The notes under the pieces: generated by a model
Seen by the model: only the letters and a program-made list of their open reading frames with translations
Told to the model about the DNA's origin: nothing
Databases searched by the model: none
Assembly: GCA_001799615.1 (NCBI GenBank)
Contig: MGTU01000027.1
Span: 27,451-91,450 of the forward strand
Direction: 5' to 3'
Source of the DNA: Elusimicrobia bacterium GWA2_61_42
GTDB taxonomy: Bacteria > Elusimicrobiota > Elusimicrobia > Elusimicrobiales > UBA9959
DNA length: 64,000 bases
Made by a program: the position numbers and the translations under genes
Part shown: positions 6,959 to 58,051 of the stretch, one piece after another
How the letters are laid out: each line of letters starts with the position of its first letter
Numbering within the stretch: the stretch's first letter is position 1

Positions 6959-6973
6959 GGCAGCGCGGGAAAT

Positions 6974-7010
6974 AAAAAAGCCCCGGGTTCGCCGGGGCTT
7001 TTTCTTTTTA
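6974..7010. terminator. bidirectional rho-independent terminator between convergent genes
   Basis: AAAAAA-AGCCCCGG(6979-6986)-GTTCG-CCGGGGCT(6992-6999)-TTTTC. A-run and T-run flank a perfect 8-bp GC stem. Confidence 0.8.
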
Positions 7011-7018
7011 CGGGACGA

Positions 7019-14087: not shown

Positions 14088-14396
14088 ATGATAGATCTGA
14101 AACCTATTTTTCTCAGAAAAGTTAAAAATATCCTGGCCGGCAACGTGCCGGAATACGACGTTATGGTTTACGGCTCGCGCGCGGACGGCACGGCGAAGAA
14201 ATACTCCTATCTCGATATAGCGGTGATGTCGGACAAGCCCCTGGTGGCCACGCGCCTTGAAAAGCTTTCCGCCGAATTTACCGCGGCCGGTTTTCCTTTC
14301 CGGGTCGAGACCATAGACTGGGCCGCCACGGGCGCCAGTTTCCGCAAAGAGATCAAGAAGACCGGCGTCTTCATCCAAAGCACCCCTAAAAAATAA
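14088..14396 (+). CDS. minimal nucleotidyltransferase (MNT / Pol-beta-fold) domain protein, copy 1
   Basis: 102 aa. VMVYGSRADGTAKKYSYLDIAVM fits hG[GS]-x(9-13)-D-h-[DE]-h, except the first acidic residue is Tyr. Confidence 0.7.
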   Translation: MIDLKPIFLRKVKNILAGNVPEYDVMVYGSRADGTAKKYSYLDIAVMSDKPLVATRLEKLSAEFTAAGFPFRVETIDWAATGASFRKEIKKTGVFIQSTPKK

Positions 14397-14403
14397 CGGC
14401 TCT

Positions 14404-14712
14404 ATGATAGACCTGAAACCTATCTTTTTAAAGAAAGTGAAGGGCATCCTCGCGTCCAACGTGCCTGAATTCGACGTGATGGTCTACGGCGCGCGGGCCG
14501 GCGCCTCGGCCAAGAAGTTCTCGTACCTGGATATCGTGGTGATGTCGGACAAGCCGCTTTCGGCGGCCCGGCTCGAAAAACTGGAAGCCGCCTTCAAGGC
14601 CGCCTCCTTCCCTTTCCGCGTGGAATCCATCTGCTGGGCCGCCACCGGCCCCAGCTTCCGCAAAGAAATAAAAAAAACCGGCGTCCTCATCCAGACCGCA
14701 CCTAAAAAATAA
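14404..14712 (+). CDS. minimal nucleotidyltransferase (MNT) domain protein, copy 2 (tandem paralog)
   Basis: 102 aa, collinear with copy 1 and mostly identical residue by residue. GS becomes GA (VMVYGARAGASAKKFSYLDIVVM). Confidence 0.7.
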   Translation: MIDLKPIFLKKVKGILASNVPEFDVMVYGARAGASAKKFSYLDIVVMSDKPLSAARLEKLEAAFKAASFPFRVESICWAATGPSFRKEIKKTGVLIQTAPKK

Positions 14713-14732: not shown

Positions 14733-14865
14733 GGGGCGGCGAGGGGGCCGGGTTAGCAAAACCGTCTCGGAGCCCGACGCTTGCGTAAGCGCGGAGGGCG
14801 AGAGCCGGAAGCGCGCGCACGGTGTGCGCGACGCTGTTTTTGCGTTCCGGCCCCCTTGACGCCCC
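14733..14865 (+). repeat. structured intergenic element, copy A (candidate ncRNA or palindromic repeat family)
   Basis: 19-position closing helix 14733-14751 / 14847-14865. Shares conserved blocks CCGGGTTAGCAAAACCG, CGCTTGCGTAAGCGCGG, CACGGTGTG, TTTTGCGTTCCGG with 53121-53274. Confidence 0.75.
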
Positions 14866-17155: not shown

Positions 17156-19087
17156 ATGGACAGCAAAGACGGAAAAAAGAAAGAATCGATAGACGAAATA
17201 CTTTCGGACCTTAACGGGCTCCTGAACAAGATGCCGTCCATTCTTGACGGCATTAAAATGCCGGAGATAAAACCGGTTGAGTTCGTAAAGCCGGAACCTG
17301 TGCCCGCCCCGGAGCCGGAACCGGTTAAAAAAGACACCCCCGCCTCCCCGGACGCGGATAAAACTATTATTCTCGAAGCTTTTTCCGGCCTGCCCGAAGG
17401 CGCCGCGGCGCCGGAGGAAAAGCCCGTCGAACCCGCGCAGGACGCCGGCGACAAAACGATGATCATAGAAGCTTTTTCCAGGCTGCCCGAGGGCGCCCAG
17501 GCCCCCGAACCTGAAAAACTGGTGCCGCAAAGCCTTGGAGATTTTATGTTCGGTGAAGACGCGCAGGCGCAGAACGCCGAACAGCCCGCCGCGGAACCTG
17601 CCGCAGCGGAGCAGCCCGTTCCCACGATAGCCGAATTCACCCCTGCGGCCGACCAGAAGCCGGAGCCGGGGTTTGCGGAAGACGCGGAGGGTTTCCCCGC
17701 GATCGAGCCGGAAACGCCGGCAGACGCGCAGCCCGAACCGGAGAAGCCGGTGGCCGGCCTGTCCGCCGCTCACGCGTATGAAAGCACCAGGGATTTCGGC
17801 GTTCCCGACATAGACGCCCTGATGCAGCTTTCCGAAGGGGATATCAAGGACCTGACGGGCCCGGAGGCCTCGCTGGAGCCGGCCTCGGATCCCATGTCCC
17901 AGCCTGAACCGGACAAGGCGGAACCGTCCATGAACGAGCTGGCTGATTTTGAAAAACAGCTGAACGCGGCGGCGCCGCAGGGGGAAGCGATGGAGAACAA
18001 GCCGGAAGAACAAAAACCTGAAATTCAGCAGGAGCCGGAAGGCCTCGTACTCGAGCCTGCCTCAAAACCGGAAACCGGCTTCGAGGGCCTTACCATAGAG
18101 CCCGAAACCCAGGCCGCGCCCGAAGCCGCCCAAACTCCCGCCGGGGAGCCGGAAGGCCTGGTGCTCGAGCCCGCCTCAAAACCGGAAACCGGCTTCGAGG
18201 GCCTTACCCTGGAACCCGAAACCCAGGCCGCGCCCGAAGCCGCCCAAACTCCCGCCGGGGAGCCGGAAGGCCTCGTGCTTGAGCCCGCCTCAAAACCGGA
18301 AGCCGGCTTCGAGGGCCTTACCCTGGAGCCCGAAACCCAGGCCGCGCCCGAAGCCGCCGAAACGCTGCAGCTGGAACCGTCCAGCGCGGTCAACGCCGCC
18401 CCCGCCGCCGGCATAGAACTTTCCATCGGCAGCCAGCCTGAAGCGCAGCCTGCGGCCGTACAGCCCGAGCCCCTCCCCGCCGACAAAGCCGAGGAAACCT
18501 TGTCCGTAAGCCCCAGGGAACCCGGCCTGGTGCTGGAACCCGCCAGCGCGGCCATTTCCGGCTCCGCCGCTTCCGGGGACGAGACGCTCGTCATGCCGCC
18601 GCCTGCCGGCGGCTCCGGCGAAGAAGATAAGACCGTTATTTTTGAGGCGGGCGCCGGTCCCGGCGTTACTTCCCGCTCCCAGGCCGGGGACCTGGCCGGG
18701 CTGGCCGAAAGGCCCGTGCCCGAGGGCATTCCCGCGGAGCGGGTGAGATCGGTGTGCTTCTTTTACGCCTCCGAAGACAAAGCTCTGTGCGCCACGGTGC
18801 TGGCCGAGCTGGATTCCATCTGCCTGAAGTCCGCCGCCAAGCCTATGTTCGTAAAGCGCGCTTCCGTGCGCGAATGCGACCCCGAGATGAACGCCAACTA
18901 TATCCTGCAGACCGTTACCGACGCCGGCGGGCAGGGCCTGGTCTGCGTAGGGGCTATCCCGCAGGAGAAACTCTACGAGATCGAAACCGCGTTCAGCGGC
19001 TCGGGCGGATTTTTCCGGCATTATGACTCGGCCGGTTTCAGCCATTCCTCGGCGTTGGACCTGGTAACGGAGCTTATCCTCCGGTAA
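17156..19087 (+). CDS. acidic Pro/Glu-rich repeat protein with a structured ~116-aa C-terminal domain (hypothetical)
   Basis: 643 aa. N-terminal helix ESIDEILSDLNGLLNKMPSIL. Long P/E/A-rich region with DKTxIxEAFSxLPEGA x2 and a 38-aa unit x3. C-terminal region VCFFYASEDKAL...GLVCVG...ALDLVTELILR has alternating hydrophobic strand/helix periodicity. Confidence 0.7.
   Translation: MDSKDGKKKESIDEILSDLNGLLNKMPSILDGIKMPEIKPVEFVKPEPVPAPEPEPVKKDTPASPDADKTIILEAFSGLPEGAAAPEEKPVEPAQDAGDKTMIIEAFSRLPEGAQAPEPEKLVPQSLGDFMFGEDAQAQNAEQPAAEPAAAEQPVPTIAEFTPAADQKPEPGFAEDAEGFPAIEPETPADAQPEPEKPVAGLSAAHAYESTRDFGVPDIDALMQLSEGDIKDLTGPEASLEPASDPMSQPEPDKAEPSMNELADFEKQLNAAAPQGEAMENKPEEQKPEIQQEPEGLVLEPASKPETGFEGLTIEPETQAAPEAAQTPAGEPEGLVLEPASKPETGFEGLTLEPETQAAPEAAQTPAGEPEGLVLEPASKPEAGFEGLTLEPETQAAPEAAETLQLEPSSAVNAAPAAGIELSIGSQPEAQPAAVQPEPLPADKAEETLSVSPREPGLVLEPASAAISGSAASGDETLVMPPPAGGSGEEDKTVIFEAGAGPGVTSRSQAGDLAGLAERPVPEGIPAERVRSVCFFYASEDKALCATVLAELDSICLKSAAKPMFVKRASVRECDPEMNANYILQTVTDAGGQGLVCVGAIPQEKLYEIETAFSGSGGFFRHYDSAGFSHSSALDLVTELILR
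18032..18360 (+). repeat. in-frame tandem repeat, 114-bp period, ~2.9 near-identical copies
   Basis: GAGCCGGAAGGCCT... restarts at 18032, 18146 and 18260. Encodes EPEGLVLEPASKPE[T/A]GFEGLT[I/L]EPETQAAPEAAQTPAG. Confidence 0.95.
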
Positions 19088-31790: not shown

Positions 31791-33236
31791 CTATTTCGAG
31801 GAACGGCTCCACACGGCGTAGCGCTCGCCGCTGGCCTCCAGGGTCCAGCCGTCGCCCGGGTTCCAGCCCCAGTTGCGGCCCAGCTTCATCACCAGCTGGC
31901 GGTTCTTGCCGGCTATGGTGGCCGCGTACAGGCCGTTGCTGGCCGCCAGTATCTGCATGGGGCTGGTGGAGGTTACGCCCGCGCTTTTGCGCACCGCCAG
32001 CAGCTTTGTGATGGCGTCGCGGTAGGCGGGGCCCCAGTCGAAGAAGTGCGGCCAGAACACGCAGGGGATGCCGGGATGGGTCAGGATGTAGGCGTAGCCC
32101 ATCAGGCGCTGCGTTCTGTATTCCTGCGTCGCGTTCTGTATGAAATTCGGGTCGCGGGGGGAAGTGTCGTGGGACTCGACGTAGGTGACGGACTTGGCGG
32201 GCCACCAGCCGATCACGCCGGAGGGGCGGCCGTTGTCGTTGAGGAGTTCGTAGCGCTCGCTTTCCACCGCGCCCACCAGGGCGTAGCGCTGGGTGAAGTC
32301 GAAGGCCGTGGAGGCGTTGGCCTTGCCGGAAGAGGAGTCCGTGCCGTCTATCCAGTCCGTTATCTGCCGGCGGTCGGTGTCGTAGTATTCCCCCACGGTG
32401 AAAACGGGGCTGGAAGCCTTGTTGTAGTCCTCGATATGGGACGGGGCGTAGCCTTTTACCATGTCGTAGCGCCAGCCGTCGAAGCCTACGGTGTGCTTGA
32501 GCCAGCGCAGGAACACGCGGCTGTCCTCCTGCACGGCCGGGTTGCGGTGGTCCAGGTCCCTGCAGCCGAAGTCGCCCTGGCCTTCGTCGCCGTAAAGGGC
32601 GCGCGGCAGGGCGGCGTAGGCCGGCTGGGCCCAGACTTCGTCGTCGTTGACGATAACGTTGGAGGGCCAGTCGGGGGATTTGAAATCCAGCCAGTTGCTG
32701 CTGCCGTTGCGGTGATTCAGGACTATGTCGGCCAGCACTTTTACGCCGGACCTGTGCATGGACTTTACGGCTTCGAGCAGGGCCTCTTTCTTTCCCCACT
32801 GGGAGTCCAGGTTATACCACTCTTTAGGATAATAGCTGCCCAGCGAAACCGGGGGGAACCAGACCAGGTCGAAGCCGGCGGCGGCGACCTCCGGGGCCTT
32901 GCGCGCCAGCACGCCCCACCAGCCGCCCGCGGGATGCTGCCAGTAATCGTCGGCGTACCAGTGAAAGCCCTGCAGCAGCACCAGTTCGCTGCCGGGCACG
33001 TCCAGGCGGCGCTGCGGGGGAGGGGTGAAGACCTTGCTGGAATATTTGCCGGCGGCGGCGCGCCAGTCGGCTTCGGCCGCCGCGAAAGTCCTGGCGGGCT
33101 CGGGGGCGGAAACCGCCGCGGCGCCGGCCGCGGCCTTCAGCTGGTCGCCGGCCGGCTTCAGGGCCTCGGCGTAAACGGGGAAATTAAAAAGGAAAGGCAG
33201 CAGCAGCGCTGAAAAGAGTTTGGTTGCCCGCGTCAT
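31791..33236 (-). CDS. secreted alpha-amylase, GH13 (plant/archaeal-like subfamily)
   Basis: Signal peptide. LLQGFHWY, VWFPPVS, ADIVLNHR, GWRYDMVKGY, EYYD, VESHDT, YILTHPGIPCVFWPHFFDWG. Confidence 0.88.
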   Translation of the reverse strand: MTRATKLFSALLLPFLFNFPVYAEALKPAGDQLKAAAGAAAVSAPEPARTFAAAEADWRAAAGKYSSKVFTPPPQRRLDVPGSELVLLQGFHWYADDYWQHPAGGWWGVLARKAPEVAAAGFDLVWFPPVSLGSYYPKEWYNLDSQWGKKEALLEAVKSMHRSGVKVLADIVLNHRNGSSNWLDFKSPDWPSNVIVNDDEVWAQPAYAALPRALYGDEGQGDFGCRDLDHRNPAVQEDSRVFLRWLKHTVGFDGWRYDMVKGYAPSHIEDYNKASSPVFTVGEYYDTDRRQITDWIDGTDSSSGKANASTAFDFTQRYALVGAVESERYELLNDNGRPSGVIGWWPAKSVTYVESHDTSPRDPNFIQNATQEYRTQRLMGYAYILTHPGIPCVFWPHFFDWGPAYRDAITKLLAVRKSAGVTSTSPMQILAASNGLYAATIAGKNRQLVMKLGRNWGWNPGDGWTLEASGERYAVWSRSSK

Positions 33237-39965: not shown

Positions 39966-39982
39966 CGGCCGCAGGCGCAAAT

Positions 39983-40015
39983 AAAAAGCCCCCGCTGAGA
40001 CGGGGGCTTTTTATT
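39983..40015. terminator. bidirectional rho-independent terminator (icd / macB)
   Basis: AAAAA-GCCCCCG(39988-39994)-CTGAGA-CGGGGGC(40001-40007)-TTTTTATTT. Confidence 0.85.
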
Positions 40016-40033
40016 TGGGCGGGAGCCCAGGGG

Positions 40034-51210: not shown

Positions 51211-51594
51211 ATGTCCAAAGTAATGGTGATTGACGACGAAAAAGACGTGGTGTACCTGATAAAGGTGCTCATGGAGCGGGAGAAACTGGAAGTCCTGGAG
51301 GCTTATAACGGCCTGGAGGCTTATAATAAGCTGACTTCCAAAGAGCCCGGCAAGATCATACCGGACGCCATAATACTGGACATAATGATGCCGGAGATGG
51401 ACGGCTACACTTTTCAGTCCAAGCTCCAGGAGATAGAGGAGCTGTGCCATATCCCCATCGTGATATTGACCGCCAAAGGGCAGATGAAAGACCTGTTCGA
51501 GCTTTCCTCCAATATCTTCGCCTTCGTGGAAAAACCTTTCGAGCCCAAGAACCTGGTTAAAATAGTAAAGGACGCGATAGCCTCAAAAAAATGA
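51211..51594 (+). CDS. single-domain response regulator (receiver only)
   Basis: Start at ATG 51211 (GGGAGA RBS). KVMVIDDE, IILDIMMPEMDG, IVILTAKG, EKP. Confidence 0.82.
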   Translation: MSKVMVIDDEKDVVYLIKVLMEREKLEVLEAYNGLEAYNKLTSKEPGKIIPDAIILDIMMPEMDGYTFQSKLQEIEELCHIPIVILTAKGQMKDLFELSSNIFAFVEKPFEPKNLVKIVKDAIASKK

Positions 51595-53087
51595 CTACTA
51601 CTCCCAATTCCGGCATCAATGAAATAGTCGCCAACAACTACGGCAAGATCAAAGCGATAAGGGAAAAGGGCATCGATCCCTTTCCTCACCGCTTCAAGCT
51701 GACCCACAAGATAGGCGAAGCCGTCAAGCTGCCCGCCGATACCCCCGTGATCATCGCCGGGCGCATGATGCTGATGCGCGTAATGGGCAAGGCCACCTTC
51801 GCCCATCTCAAGGACGGCACCGGCAGGATCCAGATCTACGTGAAGAAGGACGCCGTGGGCGAAGAGGCCTACGACCTGTTCAAGAAGCAGATGGCTGTGG
51901 GCGACTTCCTGGGTGTGGAGGGAAAACTCTTCCTCACGCATACCGGGGAGCTCACCGTCAACGCCGAGAAACTCACCGTGCTGTCCAAGGCCGTGCGCCC
52001 GCTGCCCGAGAAGTTCCACGGGCTGACCGACGCCGAAGCCCGCTACCGCGAGCGCTACCTGGACCTGATCTCCAACGAGGACTCCCGCGCCATCTTCGTG
52101 CGCCGCGCCCAGATCGTGGCCGCGATCCGCGACGTGCTGAACGGCCGGGGCTGCCTCGAGGTGGAGACCCCGGTGCTCTGCGCGCAGGCCGGCGGCGCCA
52201 ACGCCCGCCCTTTCATCACCTTTCATAACGCCTACCGGTACGAGCTGTACATGCGCATCGCCACCGAGCTGCCGCTGAAGAAGCTGCTGATCGGCGGCTT
52301 CGACGGCGCCTACGAGATCGGCCGCGTGTTCCGCAACGAGGGCGTGGACACCCGCCACAACCCGGAGTTCACCACCCTCGAGGCCTATATCGCCTACTCC
52401 GACTACAACGGCATGGCCGAATTCGTCGAGAGCGTCTTCGAGCGCTGCATCAAGATCCTGGGCTCCGAGACCATCGAGTACAACGGCAACACCATCAACC
52501 TCAAGCCGCCCTTCAAGCGCCTCAGCCTTCCCGACTCCTGGAAGGAGAAGACCGGCGAAGACATCCATGAGGTGCTCAAAGGCAAGGGCTTCAACCGGGA
52601 GAACCTGCAGAAACTGGCCAAGAAGATGCACGTGGAATGCGCTCCCGACACCACTTCCGCCAAGATCTTCGACCGCATCATGGACGAGAAGATCCTGGGC
52701 GCGCTGGTGCAGCCGACCTTCGTGATGGACTACCCCACGGCTATCACCCCGCTGGCCAAGTGCAAGACCGGCGACGAGAGCCTGGTGGAGCGCTTCGAGT
52801 TCTTCGCCGGCACCGAGGAGATAGCCAACGCCTACTCAGAGCTGAACGACCCGGAAGACCAGAAGAGCCGCCTGGTCGAGCAGCTGCGCCAGCAGCAGGA
52901 AGAGAACAACGGCGAAGCCGACATCCTCGACAAGGATTTCATCGAAGCCATGGAATACGGCATGCCCCCGATGGGCGGCATAGGCATCGGCATCGACCGC
53001 CTGTGCATGCTGATGAACGGCAAGCCCTCCATCCGGGAAGTCATCTTATTCCCGCTGCTGCGCCCCGATACCGATACGCCGAAGTAA
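51591..53087 (+). CDS. lysS: lysine--tRNA ligase, class II
   Basis: 498 aa. OB-fold anticodon-binding N-domain. Class II motifs FRNEGVDTRHNPEFTTLE and GGIGIGIDRLCMLM. Confidence 0.95.
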   Translation: MTTTPNSGINEIVANNYGKIKAIREKGIDPFPHRFKLTHKIGEAVKLPADTPVIIAGRMMLMRVMGKATFAHLKDGTGRIQIYVKKDAVGEEAYDLFKKQMAVGDFLGVEGKLFLTHTGELTVNAEKLTVLSKAVRPLPEKFHGLTDAEARYRERYLDLISNEDSRAIFVRRAQIVAAIRDVLNGRGCLEVETPVLCAQAGGANARPFITFHNAYRYELYMRIATELPLKKLLIGGFDGAYEIGRVFRNEGVDTRHNPEFTTLEAYIAYSDYNGMAEFVESVFERCIKILGSETIEYNGNTINLKPPFKRLSLPDSWKEKTGEDIHEVLKGKGFNRENLQKLAKKMHVECAPDTTSAKIFDRIMDEKILGALVQPTFVMDYPTAITPLAKCKTGDESLVERFEFFAGTEEIANAYSELNDPEDQKSRLVEQLRQQQEENNGEADILDKDFIEAMEYGMPPMGGIGIGIDRLCMLMNGKPSIREVILFPLLRPDTDTPK

Positions 53088-53120
53088 CGCGGCTTTCTCT
53101 CGATCACCAAAGAGGCTACT

Positions 53121-53274
53121 CCAGGCGCAGCGGGGACCGGGTTAGCAAAACCGGGTTGCGTGGAGCGTAGCTCCACTTTCTTGCCCGCCGCTTGCATAAG
53201 CGCGGCGGGCGAATACCGAGTGAGGCCACGGTGTGGCCGAACGCGTTTTGCGTTCCGGTCCCCGCTGCGCCTGG
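53121..53274 (+). repeat. structured intergenic element, copy B (candidate ncRNA or palindromic repeat family)
   Basis: Perfect 20-bp closing helix 53121-53140 / 53255-53274. Same conserved blocks and inner hairpins as 14733-14865, plus an extra GTGGAGC-GTA-GCTCCAC hairpin. Confidence 0.78.
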
Positions 53275-53283
53275 TTTACACAT

Positions 53284-54510
53284 ATGTCCACAGAATTCTT
53301 TATAGCGCGGCGTTACCTGCTTGCCAAACGCAAGGGCCTCTTCGCCATGATCACCACGTTCATCGGCGTGGCCGGCGTGGCGCTGGGCGTGGCCGCGCTG
53401 ATCGTGACGCTGGCCATCATGGACGGCTTCCAGTCCGACATCAAGAAAAAGATCATAGACGCGCAGGCCCACATCACCATATACGGCCGCATGCAGCCGC
53501 GCGACCTGGAAGTGGTCGCCGCCGAGCTCGGCCGCGACGGGCGCGTGGCGGCCCAGTCGCCCTTCGTGCTGGGCCAGGCCATCCTCACTTTCGACACCCG
53601 CTCCAGCGGCGTAGTGGTCAAAGGCCTGGACCCCGCCGGGGAGTTCAGCGTGAACAACCTTAAAAATTCGCTGGTGCGCGGTTCCTGGGAGGCCCTGGCC
53701 AAACCCGCTCCGGGCGCGCCGCAGGCGCTGATCCTCGGAGAAGAGCTCGCGAAGAACCTCGGGCTGTGGGTGGGGGACGAAGCCGTGCTGGTCTCTCCCC
53801 AGGGCACGGCTACCGGGATGGGACTGCTGCCCAGGATGAAAAAATTCAGGATAGCCGGCCTCGTGCGCACCGGCTATTACGAGTTCGACAACACCATGGC
53901 CTACTGCTCGATAGGAGCGGCCGGGGATTTCTTCGGGCTGGGCGGCGGCGCCAACGGCGTCGGCATCCGGCTCAAGAACCTCAAAGAGGCCGCCCCCGCC
54001 GCGGCCGGGCTGCGCAAGGCGCTGGGTTTCGCCTACACGGTAAAGACCTACGCCGACATGAACCAGACGCTGTTCGCCGCGCTGAAACTGGAAAAATTCG
54101 TGATGTCCCTGGTGCTGGCTCTGATCATCCTGGTCGCCACTTTCAATATCGCCTCCAACCTGCTGATGATGAGCGTGGAGAAACTGCGCGACATCGGCAT
54201 CCTGCGGGCCATGGGGGCGGGCCCGGGCTTCATCCGCCGGGTCTTTTTCTGGGAGGGCAACCTGATAGCCGTCACCGGCATAACGCTGGGCGTGCTGCTG
54301 GGCGTGGGCCTGTCCGTCTTCATCTCCGTCTACCCCGTCGTAGAACTGCCTTCGGACATCTACTATATCACCAAGGTGCCGGTCGAACTTAAACTGCGGG
54401 ACATCCTGGCCACCGCCGGGGTGAGCTACCTGCTCTGCATGCTGAGCGCGGTTTACCCCGCGCTGAGGGCCTCCAGGATCAGCCCCGTGGACGCGATACG
54501 CTATGGATAA
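53284..54510 (+). CDS. lolC: lipoprotein-releasing system permease, LolC/LolE family
   Basis: Start moved to ATG 53284 (MSTEFFIARRYLLAKRK, the typical family N-terminus). MacB-like periplasmic domain and FtsX C-terminal TM bundle. The track start 53233 lies inside the structured repeat. Confidence 0.88.
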   Translation: MSTEFFIARRYLLAKRKGLFAMITTFIGVAGVALGVAALIVTLAIMDGFQSDIKKKIIDAQAHITIYGRMQPRDLEVVAAELGRDGRVAAQSPFVLGQAILTFDTRSSGVVVKGLDPAGEFSVNNLKNSLVRGSWEALAKPAPGAPQALILGEELAKNLGLWVGDEAVLVSPQGTATGMGLLPRMKKFRIAGLVRTGYYEFDNTMAYCSIGAAGDFFGLGGGANGVGIRLKNLKEAAPAAAGLRKALGFAYTVKTYADMNQTLFAALKLEKFVMSLVLALIILVATFNIASNLLMMSVEKLRDIGILRAMGAGPGFIRRVFFWEGNLIAVTGITLGVLLGVGLSVFISVYPVVELPSDIYYITKVPVELKLRDILATAGVSYLLCMLSAVYPALRASRISPVDAIRYG

Positions 54511-55180
54511 GACGGAGAAGATCGTTGAAATAACGAACCTGAGCAAGGCCTACACCCAGGGCCATGAACAGATCCTCGTGCTCGAGGAACTGGATTTTTC
54601 CATCTCCAAAGGCGAGTTCATCTCCATCGTCGGGCCGTCGGGTTCGGGTAAATCCACTTTTCTCAATATCGTAGGCCTGCTCGACGACGTGTACAGCGGC
54701 GAGATCCGCCTCTTCGGCAGGCGCCTCGAAGACCTGGGCGAGGCCGAGAAGGCCGTGCTGCGCCTGAAGAACATCGGCTTCGTGTTCCAGTTCGACTCGC
54801 TGCTGCCGGAGTTCACGGTACTGGAGAACATCGAGATGCCGGCCCGCGTGCTGGGCGGCGCCGCGCCGGGGCGCGGCCTGGAACTCCTGAAGCATTTCGA
54901 CCTGGAAGTCATCGCCCACAAGTTCCCCATGGAGATCTCCGGCGGGGAAAAGCAGCGCGCGGCCATGCTGAGGGCGCTGCGCAACGGTCCCGCCCTGCTG
55001 ATAGCCGACGAACCCACGGGCAACCTCGACCGCCACAATTCCGGGGTCATCCTGGACGACCTGCGGCGCGCCGCGGACCTCGGCACCGCGGTGCTGATGG
55101 TCACCCACAACGAGGAAGCCGCCCGCCGCGCCGACCGGTCGCTGCGGATGGCCGGCGGAAGGCTGGAAACGCCCAAATGA
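54503..55180 (+). CDS. lolD: lipoprotein-releasing system ATP-binding protein LolD
   Basis: Walker A GPSGSGKST, ISGGEKQR, LLIADEPTGNLD. 8-nt overlap with lolC. Confidence 0.88.
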   Translation: MDKTEKIVEITNLSKAYTQGHEQILVLEELDFSISKGEFISIVGPSGSGKSTFLNIVGLLDDVYSGEIRLFGRRLEDLGEAEKAVLRLKNIGFVFQFDSLLPEFTVLENIEMPARVLGGAAPGRGLELLKHFDLEVIAHKFPMEISGGEKQRAAMLRALRNGPALLIADEPTGNLDRHNSGVILDDLRRAADLGTAVLMVTHNEEAARRADRSLRMAGGRLETPK

Positions 55181-56806: not shown

Positions 56807-58051
56807 ATGATCAAACGCCTCCTTGCCGTTTTTATTTTAGCCGCGGGCCTGCTGCAAACGCAGAGCCTGGTTCTTTTTGCCGCCGGAAGCGGCGAGACTA
56901 CCGTGATGATGCAGGGGTTTCACTGGACCTCCTGGAAAACAGCCCCGTGGTGGGGGGAGCTGGGCCGCAGGGCCGGCGAACTTTCCGGCGCCGGCATAAA
57001 CCTGGTCTGGCTGCCGCCTTCCTCCGATTCCCTGGCCCCCGAGGGCTACCTGCCGAGGAAACTCAACGTCCAGGATTCTAATTACGGCACGGCCGCCCAG
57101 TTGGGCGCCGCGGTCAGGGCGCTGCACGCCCGCGGCATCAGGGTCATCGCGGATATCGTGGTCAATCACCGCGTCGGCACAAAAGGCTGGGCGGATTTCG
57201 CCGCGCCCGCCTGGGGCCCCGACTCGGTCTGCTCCGACGACGAGTGGGGGCAGGGTGAGGGGGCTCCGGATACCGGCAAGGGTTTTCACGCAGGGCGCGA
57301 TATCGACCACACCAAGGCTTACGTCAGGGATTCGATAAAGGGCTGGCTGAAAGGGCTGCAGGACGGCCCCGGCTACGACGGCTGGCGCTATGACTACGCG
57401 CGCGGGCTGGCCCCTGGCTACCTGCTGGGATACAACCGCGCCACGGCGCCTTCCTTCGCCGTCGCCGAGATCTGGGACGACCTGGACCTGAACAACACGA
57501 ACGCCCACCGCCAGGCGTCCGTGGACTGGATGGATGCCGTGAACGGCGAGATAAAGGTTTTCGATTTTACCACTAAAGGCGTGCTGCAGGCCGCCCTGGG
57601 ATCGGGCGAATACTGGCGCCTCGCTGACGCGAACGGCAGGCCCTCCGGGCTGATAGGCTGGTGGCCGGCCAACGCCGTGACCTTTATAGACAACCACGAC
57701 ACCGGGCCCAGCCCCGGCGGGAAACTGAAGGACAAGGGCTGGCCTTTCCCCTCGGACAAGGTGCAGGCCGGGTACGCTTATATCCTGACGCATCCCGGCG
57801 TGCCGTGCGTGTACTGGCCCCACTTCTTCGACTGGGGGCTCAAGGAGCCCATCACCGCCCTGTTAAAGGTGCGCCGCGCCGCGGGCATAAACTCCGCCAG
57901 CCCCGTCTCCATCCTGAAAGCCGAACAGGGGCTTTACGCGGCCGTCATCGGCGGCAGGGCGGCTCTGAAGCTGGGAGACAGGCCCTGGAACCCCGGGCCG
58001 GGCTGGAGCCTGGCCGCCGAAGGTCCGTTTTACTCGGTCTGGACGAAATGA
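56807..58051 (+). CDS. secreted alpha-amylase, GH13 (plant-type subfamily)
   Basis: Signal peptide. MMQGFHW, LVWLPPSS, ADIVVNHR, GWRYDYARG, AEIWDD, IDNHDT, YILTHPGVPCVYWPHFFDWG. Paralog of 31791-33236. Confidence 0.88.
   Translation: MIKRLLAVFILAAGLLQTQSLVLFAAGSGETTVMMQGFHWTSWKTAPWWGELGRRAGELSGAGINLVWLPPSSDSLAPEGYLPRKLNVQDSNYGTAAQLGAAVRALHARGIRVIADIVVNHRVGTKGWADFAAPAWGPDSVCSDDEWGQGEGAPDTGKGFHAGRDIDHTKAYVRDSIKGWLKGLQDGPGYDGWRYDYARGLAPGYLLGYNRATAPSFAVAEIWDDLDLNNTNAHRQASVDWMDAVNGEIKVFDFTTKGVLQAALGSGEYWRLADANGRPSGLIGWWPANAVTFIDNHDTGPSPGGKLKDKGWPFPSDKVQAGYAYILTHPGVPCVYWPHFFDWGLKEPITALLKVRRAAGINSASPVSILKAEQGLYAAVIGGRAALKLGDRPWNPGPGWSLAAEGPFYSVWTK

Follow-up and report, generated by a model that had tools for sequence, protein, structure and literature searches.

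An apparently undescribed family of structured intergenic repeats in Elusimicrobia genomes, with one copy in the lysS-lolC spacer

Results

The lysS-lolC spacer holds one copy of a dispersed structured element

The 64,000-nt stretch of Elusimicrobia bacterium GWA2_61_42 analyzed here (contig MGTU01000027.1, positions 27,451 to 91,450 of the forward strand; hereafter the window) carries two copies, A and B, of a palindromic element, and copy B fills the spacer between the genes lysS and lolC. A prediction made from the letters alone (the original prediction) had taken copy B for the second copy of a repeated structured element and had offered two candidate readings, a structured RNA and an ERIC/Correia-like palindromic repeat. 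With at least 112 homologous matches, copy B is indeed a genuine repeat copy, and these two readings are the right ones to weigh. The element represents an apparently undescribed multi-copy family of Elusimicrobia (Elusimicrobiales-type) genomes. Its copies are dispersed in intergenic spacers, in either orientation and mostly beside gene 3′ ends; its fold is under selection on one defined strand; and related genomes differ by presence or absence, inversion and subtype of the copy at the same spacer. We favor a reading, for which we see about an even chance, in which copy B is one copy of a lineage-specific, non-coding, structured interspersed repeat with a probable role in mRNA as a processing or stability structure.

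Copy B as a whole (53121-53274, 154 nt, + strand), taken as the unit that the closing helix P1 delimits, is supported by both the covariance model R1, described below, and the minimum free energy (MFE) fold. The P1 5′ arm CCAGGCGCAGCGGGGACCGG (53121-53140) pairs 20/20 with the 3′ arm (53255-53274), which is its exact reverse complement, so that the perfect 20-bp closing helix of the original prediction stands. Inside P1, the internal loop (G)UUA and the P2 5′ strand GCAAAAC occupy 53141-53151, and the P2 3′ strand GTTTTGC with the loop GTT occupies 53245-53254; the P2 strands themselves, 53145-53151 and 53245-53251, form the continuation GCAAAA(C)/(G)TTTTGC that had been noticed before. The three inner hairpins of the same prediction are present in both the sequence and the MFE fold. 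The first is an optional inserted module, CGTGGAGC-GTA-GCTCCAC-TTTCTT (53159-53182), which consists of a hairpin (53160-53176) and a T-rich tail. The second is the P4 hairpin GCCCGCCGC-UU-GC-AUAA-GC-GCGGCGGGC (53183-53210) with a GC helix of 53183-53190 and 53203-53210, and the third is the P5 hairpin G-U-[GA]-GGCCAC-GGU-GUGGCC-[GA]-A-C (53220-53242), inside which lies the GGU-loop hairpin at 53224-53238. All these parts are on the + strand.

Both neighboring genes are co-directional with copy B and lie outside it. As claimed originally, the element begins 33 nt past the stop codon of lysS (51591-53087, + strand; Pfam tRNA_anti-codon and tRNA-synt_2 on the stored gene call) and ends 10 nt short of ATG 53284, the start of a lolC/lolE-like permease gene (53284-54510, + strand; MacB_PCD and FtsX domains). 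A pattern scan of 52800-53500 found no sigma-70-like promoter match.

The MFE of the + strand of copy B is −108.8 kcal/mol, compared with −67.6 ± 4.2 kcal/mol for dinucleotide shuffles (z = −9.9; 0 of 200 shuffles match). The − strand folds nearly as well (−104.5 kcal/mol), as expected because the element is a palindrome. R1 scored 92.5 bits (E 1e-20) on the + strand versus 20.4 bits on the − strand. The 20-mer P1 arm has no other match in the window at up to 3 mismatches (0.08 expected by chance).

The family is abundant and, by organism names, confined to Elusimicrobia

We scanned a species-representative genome collection for the pattern formed by the two outer conserved blocks, GGTTAGCAAAACC and TTTTGCGTTCC, separated by a gap of 66-96 nt. 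This anchor pattern gave at least 112 matches. The first 80 matches listed come from at least 27 assemblies, whose names indicate a genome GC content of 56-69%, and the metagenome-assembled genome (MAG) STB_10 has at least 11 copies among the matches listed. All organism-named titles among the matches listed are those of Elusimicrobia, Elusimicrobiales or Elusimicrobiaceae MAGs, while six say just 'bacterium'; as far as names show, the family is confined to one lineage. The same pattern gave 0 matches in viral contigs.

The loci around the anchor matches were fetched (L001-L112), and R1 was derived from 30 non-redundant copies. Applied to 860 kb of these loci, it finds 139 copies, about 25 of them without exact anchors, and it separates the strands, with 92-145 bits on one and 16-20 bits on the other. 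Rfam 15 gave 0 matches for the whole window at the gathering threshold. For both copies at E ≤ 10, the only matches it gave, to unrelated microRNA and small RNA (sRNA) models, scored 10-15 bits against thresholds of 47-168 bits. Neither copy has an Rfam signal for group II intron domain V or the self-cleaving ribozyme classes, and these candidates were discarded. A hammerhead or C/D-box-like reading of CUGAUGA strings was also rejected, since the strings occur in few copies only. A small literature search on Elusimicrobia repeats and structured RNAs found nothing relevant; to our knowledge, the Elusimicrobia, which are almost uncultured, are without described non-coding RNA or repeat families.

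A conserved core with non-canonical motifs is closed by a helix that conserves only its pairing

According to the 112-sequence alignment and RNAalifold, the unit of about 135-165 nt consists of P1, an internal loop (G)UUA/GU(U), P2 (GCAAAAC/GUUUUGC) and a three-way junction with P3-P4 and P5. P1 has 14-26 bp and a very variable sequence in which pairing is kept, 16 of its 18 pairs having changed on both sides across the family. Two of its features are semi-conserved: the ~9 bp nearest the core, GGGGRCCGG, and, in 26 of 106 copies, an A·G mismatch at position 13 as counted from the core. The sequence GUUAGC follows P1 in all anchor-type copies, and its G forms the first pair of P2. The original prediction had described variable inner hairpins within a conserved closing helix. 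The alignment shows the reverse: over 112 copies the core is conserved to invariant loops, and the closing helix keeps pairing alone.

P2 is invariant in the anchor-selected copies by construction of the search pattern; it covaries among the divergent copies that R1 recovered (GAAAAAC/GUUUUUC, CCAAAAC/GUUUUGG, GGCGGGC/GCCCGCC, GCAGGGC/GCCCUGC). P3 covaries within each length class, as in pair 62-101 (GC 23, CG 11, AU 3). In P4, 7 of 9 pairs are doubly changed in the family. This hairpin has a UU bulge, a loop GUAA, AUAA or AUA and, in most copies, a tandem G·A/A·G (GCCC-GA-CGC...GCG-GA-GGGC) that is replaced in copy B by G-C/C-G. The apex of P5, CAC-GGU-GUG, is nearly invariant and lies over a tandem G·A; the stem column pair 94-104 is CG in 15 and GC in 15 sequences, and the pair flanking the tandem GA also covaries (CG 9, GC 8, UA 8, AU 3). 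Pairing was tested in a 30-sequence alignment with a hand-drawn structure for P1, P2, P4 and P5. Standard pairs fill 89.9% of cells versus 73.0% in column shuffles, with 0 of 500 shuffles reaching the observed value, and sliding the 3′ partner by 1-3 columns lowers pairing to 35-49% of cells. Double-sided changes occur in 29 of 42 pairs. All five helices covary.

Among the non-standard appositions of P1, 73 are G·U/U·G and 41 are A·C/C·A, which indicates that the + strand is the strand whose fold is preserved. The original prediction held that sequence alone could not separate its two readings. This stays partly true when tools are applied: the structure is clearly selected, and the selected molecule may be RNA or single-stranded DNA (ssDNA).

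The optional module of about 22 nt is present in about 10% of copies, in the form CGTGG...CCAC-TTTCTT or GGTGGCC...GGCCAY-TGCAGT. It is located before P4 (copy B, L107), after P4 (L036, L093) or on the 3′ side of P5 (L058, L067, L069, L084, L099), and L073 is among the further module-bearing loci. The module was never found outside elements, and inside them it always has the element orientation.

A divergent clade has a P1 of GGGTATGGG/CCCATACCC and a different P2 (L010 752-888, L100 3954-4098, L063 2455-2598, L021 2181-2326, L073 1204-1373 and L069/L040/L042); in L010 and L100, non-complementary GAGCGAC strands take the place of P2. Divergent copies carry UUC, UUU, AUA or CAG where the anchor-type copies have the UUA context after P1.

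Copies avoid divergent spacers and lie in unrelated contexts

The genomic context of 114 copies was assigned with a GC-frame gene caller, which was checked against the stored gene calls of L001. The element is antisense to both neighboring genes in 41 copies, sense to both in 28 (28 of 101 classified), between convergent genes in 28 and between divergent genes in 4. The background in these loci, counted over spacers with a length of 40 nt or more, is 243 co-directional, 66 convergent and 50 divergent; by comparison, divergent, promoter-bearing spacers are avoided and convergent ones enriched. The median distance from a copy is 32 nt where a gene 3′ end faces it and 67 nt where a gene 5′ end does. 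The orientation of the copies has no bias with respect to local GC skew (57 positive, 55 negative).

The downstream gene is on the same strand in only about one third of copies, and the contexts are unrelated. The suggestion that copy B might be a leader of lolCD-mcsAB or a 3′ untranslated region (3′UTR) specific to lysS thus fails against more than 100 copies in unrelated contexts and both orientations.

No T-run follows P1: in 110 copies the T frequency in the next 10 nt is 0.07-0.25. Canonical hairpin-plus-T-run terminators are used elsewhere in these genomes, and the only part of an element that matches this simple pattern is the inserted mini-hairpin of copy B, 53160-53176 plus TTTCTT, on the + strand. 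We also detected no general promoter. The upstream −10 score is 3.36 versus 3.01 for the mirrored downstream region (p = 0.28) without a positional peak, and the AT-rich side of the flanks follows the 5′ region of the neighboring gene. In copies with antisense context, the upstream −10 score is 4.89 versus 3.92 in the matched control, a marginal difference (p = 0.06).

Orthologous spacers differ in presence, orientation and subtype of the element

Flank comparison revealed many copies in orthologous spacers of different MAGs. Where the flanks are 94% identical, the copies are essentially identical (L006/L012). Where they are 75-90% identical, the cores are 76-93% alike and P1 only 55-85%, and about one third of the orthologous filled pairs are mutually inverted. 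A single spacer, that of L016, L091 and L098, holds three unrelated P1 helices in two orientations. Empty orthologous sites are represented by one clean filled/empty pair, L011/L081, and five more cases, in a sample whose filled-versus-empty frequencies are biased by the way the loci were collected. Because P1 is absent from the empty site in L011/L081, it is part of the element. L011 and L044, which come from the same MAG, have 98-nt cores that are 100% identical and unrelated P1 helices; this implies either concerted evolution of the cores or renewal of P1 on moving. Truncated 3′ fragments adjoin full copies. We also considered whether the core had been inserted into a pre-existing terminator or palindrome. 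This was rejected on account of the clean empty site without P1, the lack of a T-run after P1 and the semi-conserved features that P1 itself has.

The lysS-lolC spacer is occupied in two relatives. That of L104 holds a copy in the same orientation, recognizably orthologous to copy B, with a P1 90% alike and two compensatory double changes in it (G-C to T-A and A-T to C-G); L104 keeps the family-typical A·G mismatch of P1 where copy B has C-G. That of L111 holds an inverted copy of a different subtype, which excludes a dedicated lol leader or lysS 3′ element. A role of copy B as a dedicated regulator of lysS or lolC is thereby effectively excluded. The comparison of these spacers had been proposed with copy B, and the presence/absence polymorphism named there as an argument for mobility does exist, since other orthologous spacers are empty.

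Two arrangements of inverted copies were seen in the fetched loci. At L080 5847-6395, an 87-aa GIY-YIG nuclease gene lies between two inverted copies, and the same gene stands beside a copy in L031 and L072. As a general partner of the family this gene was rejected: L031, L072 and L080 are a single orthologous locus, the only one of its kind. It is the only bracketed gene with a Pfam match. The other arrangement, at L107 5591-6501, resembles a small composite: a 581-nt segment lies between two inverted copies that both bear the module, and its 150-aa ORF (open reading frame), hydrophobic in a C-terminal stretch, matches no Pfam family and is without relatives elsewhere in the fetched loci.

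The start of lolC

The mechanical ORF list opens the lolC ORF at GTG 53233, within the P5 stem of copy B, as the original prediction had stated. Its expectation that automated annotation would mis-start the gene was not borne out: the stored public gene call (GCA_001799815.1, MGUE01000040.1) begins lolC at the position equal to window 53284. Nucleotide homology to the orthologous loci L104 and L111 sets in at 53283-53284. The start of lolC is ATG 53284, not GTG 53233. The GTG-extended lolC ORF (53233, + strand) and a 476-aa antisense shadow ORF (53116-54546, − strand) both open inside copy B; such ORFs are artefacts of high GC and could mislead annotation.

Copy A and other features of the window

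Copy A was confirmed at 14733-14865 on the same strand as copy B (+). It is a 133-nt member of the long-core class and, as originally described, lacks the first hairpin, that is, the inserted module. R1 scores it at 139.5 bits on the + strand versus 16.5 bits on the − strand, and the + strand is also clearly favored by MFE (−90.8 versus −79.8 kcal/mol). Copies A and B have the identical blocks CCGGGTTAGCAAAACCG, GCTTGCRTAAGCGCGG, CACGGTGTG and TTTTGCGTTCCGG in common, while their stems differ by compensatory changes. In an R1 scan of the window they are the only family members. Copy A is located 20 nt downstream of a minimal-nucleotidyltransferase gene and 62 nt upstream of a MiaB-like radical-SAM gene. 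Just upstream of it, two genes for 102-aa minimal nucleotidyltransferases (Polbeta/MNT-type) stand in tandem (14088-14396 and 14404-14712) with ~75% DNA identity.

At 18031-18372, a 114-nt unit is present in three head-to-tail copies that are 87-95% identical. The segments 32032-32921 and 56948-57837, 24-26 kb apart, share inverted matches in blocks of 68-76 nt that are 73-87% complementary. Because one side of this match is a 414-aa alpha-amylase-family gene (56807-58051), it suggests a putative inverted paralogue of that gene near 32 kb. Canonical bidirectional terminator-like hairpins with A/T runs (AAAAAGCCCCGG...CCGGGGCTTTTT) are found at 6962-7017 and 39970-40026, where R1 gives weak scores of 18.8 and 14.5 bits, respectively. 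These hairpins show that ordinary intrinsic terminators, from which P1 of the element differs, are in use in this genome.

Discussion

A proposed stable RNA structure between probably co-transcribed genes

The reading that we favor takes the family to spread or turn over as a non-autonomous element, possibly aided by a trans-acting factor that reads the conserved core. Inside a transcription unit, a copy would work simply as a very stable RNA structure. Co-transcription of lysS, copy B and lolC is probable and is the simplest inference, because the three are co-directional with no promoter-like site between them. In such a transcript the perfect 20-bp P1 would have the size of an RNase III substrate and could block 3′ exonucleases, while the inserted hairpin with its U-rich tail may act as a weak terminator-like structure. 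The likely effect would be to uncouple the mRNA levels of lysS and lolC. The 3′ arm of P1 would also occlude the stretch that lies 10-30 nt before the start codon of lolC.

Several observations weigh against this reading. With respect to mobility, no recurrent transposase-, RAYT- or reverse transcriptase (RT)-like protein was found among the 811 ORFs in the flanks (~860 kb), and all-against-all clustering of these ORFs gave generic families only (response regulators, ABC ATPases, epimerases). A longer element that shares the anchors was not found: half-site anchors are almost always paired within 140 nt, and of the few lone anchors in 957 kb (2 of the 5′ and 3 of the 3′ type), none brackets an ORF. 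Conserved ends are absent, the P1 arms differing between copies at most positions. No target-site duplication is evident in L011/L081, where the strongly diverged flanks share a possible GCTGC. Across the family the outer P1 boundaries are uncertain, and fold-based ones overshoot. The collection bias in the filled-versus-empty frequencies also counts here.

With respect to passivity, the conserved non-Watson-Crick motifs and the strand-specific wobble bias exceed the needs of a passive hairpin. Divided by context, the ratio of G·U to A·C is 26:10 in antisense, 22:10 in convergent and 11:12 in sense copies; the counts are small and the copies non-independent. The bias is thus strong in antisense copies and absent in sense copies, the opposite of what selection on read-through mRNA predicts. 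In addition, adjacent copies are divergent in 15 of 15 pairs, a − copy followed by a + copy with the 5′ ends facing across AT-rich spacers of 5-63 nt. These doublets (L017 2759-3086, L086 6965-7283, L090 4625-4940, L063 2455-2777, L009 4501-4830 and 10 more) are never tandem or tail-to-tail. In 22 copies the outer P1 starts with GGAG(G/C)GG, and many of these have a TAnnnT box 0-8 nt upstream; the −10-like boxes include exact TATAAT and TATAGT, and some share TAATAAAGTGA (examples, viewed over 55 nt upstream, are L112, L110, L080, L073, L017, L078, L010 and L100). The boxes may be promoters of the copies themselves, and together with the divergent doublets they hint at independent transcription.

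Possible independently transcribed sRNAs

One of the two main rival readings is a multi-copy family of independently transcribed, trans-acting sRNAs, probably with a protein that reads the core of tandem G·A motifs and three-way junction. P1 would then be no more than a terminal stem by which the ends are set or protected, for instance when RNase III processes it, and copy B would be a paralogous sRNA gene or a processed cassette. Five covarying helices, conserved loops and non-canonical motifs on one strand only are as expected for such RNAs, and so is a wobble bias of the element's own strand that persists where host transcription is antisense to it. The strictly divergent pairs across AT-rich spacers, the boxes upstream of the GGAG(G/C)GG copies and the slightly raised −10 score in antisense contexts also favor this explanation, as do the many copies kept in orthologous spacers across genomes, some with similar P1. 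We nevertheless consider it rather doubtful. A general promoter signal is lacking, and the AT-rich flanks are explained by the 5′ region of the neighboring gene. No T-run follows P1, and copy B itself starts 33 nt past the lysS stop without a promoter-like site. Presence/absence differences, inversion and truncated fragments would be unusual for essential sRNA genes, and tens of paralogues per genome would be a very high number for an sRNA family.

A possible selfish element acting as DNA

If the element were instead selfish at the DNA level, its ssDNA or cruciform form would be read by a trans-encoded HUH/Y1-type transposase or another structure-specific enzyme, after the model of REP/REPIN-RAYT or IS200/IS605-derived palindromic elements, and the RNA fold would be a by-product. 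The palindromic form, the occurrence in both orientations, the preference for non-promoter spacers, the turnover between genomes and the identical cores with unrelated P1 helices within one genome all fit such an element. As G·T is the best-tolerated mismatch in DNA hairpins too, the 73:41 bias fits ssDNA equally well, and the always-inverted doublets recall REPIN-like pairs. We regard this possibility as unlikely, because no transposase-like gene is present in ~860 kb of flanks and conservation is lowest at the termini, in contrast to the ends of REP sequences and miniature inverted-repeat transposable elements. Moreover, the orientation is unrelated to local GC skew, the viral contigs have no matches, and the core has GNRA-like loops and several tandem G·A motifs, features more characteristic of RNA tertiary structure.

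Local explanations

The way copy B fills the spacer, ends 10 nt before the lolC ATG and has a sense terminator-like hairpin, together with the occupied spacers of the two relatives, could suggest a cis-regulatory leader dedicated to lolCD-mcsAB, such as a riboswitch or attenuator, or else a 3′UTR element specific to lysS. Such a role is very improbable in view of the more than 100 unrelated contexts, in which 28 of 101 copies are sense to both neighbors and most are nearer to a gene 3′ end, of the inverted copy of another subtype in the lysS-lolC spacer of L111, and of copy A between unrelated genes. A chance GC-rich palindrome or an ordinary intrinsic terminator, conceivable in a GC-rich genome where simple hairpins also score weakly with R1, has a negligible probability given the shuffle test (z = −9.9), a 20-mer arm without a second match in the window, more than 100 covarying homologues, and the missing T-run after P1 in genomes that use canonical terminators elsewhere.

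A possible new class of structured RNA or mobile element

A further proposal, somewhat improbable as we see it, goes beyond the known kinds of element. The family might be a new structured-RNA class with a tandem-G·A three-way-junction core, expressed or excised from tens of loci per genome, in which P1 is a sequence-free processing stem and a dedicated protein takes part; or an RNA or ssDNA copy might be the transposition intermediate of a new non-autonomous element whose terminal helix is made anew with every move. Both versions would explain the conserved core beside a fast-evolving, always-paired P1, the wobble bias of the element's own strand whatever the direction of host transcription, the strictly divergent doublets with −10-like boxes, and the element-only 22-nt module at three positions.

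Comparison with known repeats and RNAs

By analogy, the element would work most like ERIC and Correia, while its distribution and doublets appear to resemble REP/REPIN populations. It fails the defining features of these families, with no conserved ends, no demonstrable target duplication and no linked transposase in the fetched flanks, and its conserved and variable parts are swapped.

ERIC sequences (IRU) of Enterobacteriaceae and Vibrio are ~127-nt imperfect palindromes. Like them, the element is 120-160 nt long, intergenic in transcribed regions in either orientation, and a long imperfect palindrome that folds as RNA; it likewise has length variants from insertions at a few internal sites, no coding capacity and no known transposase. 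It comes from a different phylum and has no sequence similarity to ERIC, which is conserved end to end, whereas the present element varies most in its terminal helix and conserves its branched three-way-junction core. We know of no description of covariation or tandem G·A motifs for ERIC. Homology with ERIC is very unlikely because the organism-named matches listed are all from Elusimicrobia.

Correia elements (CREE/NEMIS) of Neisseria are similar in their ~100-155 nt, their long inverted-repeat stem, their size classes by internal segment and their location between genes. They are co-transcribed, and RNase III acts on their stem, with consequences for the stability of the mRNA; a mechanism of this type is what we infer for copy B. 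At their ends Correia elements carry 26-bp repeats that are conserved; they also duplicate a TA target and have an IHF site and promoters that point outward. In contrast, the ends of the present element are not conserved, its one clean case has no evident target duplication, and a general promoter signal is absent.

With REP/REPIN the family shares many extragenic copies, mostly after gene 3′ ends or between convergent genes, as well as hairpins, frequent inverted doublets and populations that persist vertically within a lineage. REP sequences are 20-40 nt long with a conserved sequence and a 5′ GTAG, and in REPINs the loops are the variable part. The present unit is 4-5 times larger (135-165 nt), with a conserved centre and variable arms. 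GTAG is present solely in the 3′ extension of one subfamily (CGGTAGGCCGCC), and no RAYT-like gene was seen in the fetched flanks.

Two RNA systems show more limited similarities. In retron msr-msd RNAs, too, a variable inverted-repeat stem (a1/a2-like) closes a conserved structured core, and the UUAGC right after the 5′ arm of the element bears some likeness to the UAGC context of the retron branching guanosine, a tentative lead. The branching G of retrons is unpaired, whereas the G of UUAGC is paired in P2. Retron RNAs are single-copy and lie beside a reverse transcriptase gene. The resemblance fails on copy number, with tens of copies per genome here, and on the missing RT, as neither window copy nor any of the 112 loci has one beside it. 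HEARO/IsrB omega-RNAs and other structured RNAs tied to mobile elements are likewise multi-copy, strongly covarying non-coding elements dispersed in the genome, and this kind, too, came to notice as an orphan RNA motif. They exceed the present element in length, are recognized by Rfam models and go with an IscB/HNH or TnpB ORF; the element has no Rfam match and no linked ORF in its flanks. An integron attC site was rejected as well, because the outer ends are not conserved and the flanks are housekeeping genes, not cassette arrays; attC has conserved outer R″/R′ core sites (RYYYAAC...GTTRRRY) and marks the 3′ end of cassettes that are arrayed beside intI.

Significance

With this element, a class of long palindromes between the genes of Elusimicrobia MAGs is explained. 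The element is abundant (at least 112 copies, at least 27 assemblies) and combines unusually clean covariation in five helices with several non-canonical motifs. These properties make it a ready candidate for structure probing and for the question of how a conserved core goes together with a free closing helix. Should it prove to be an expressed RNA with a protein partner, or to move in a new way, the family would be both new and of some importance. Even as a passive repeat it would be a useful marker for strain typing and for studies of mRNA processing in the phylum Elusimicrobia.

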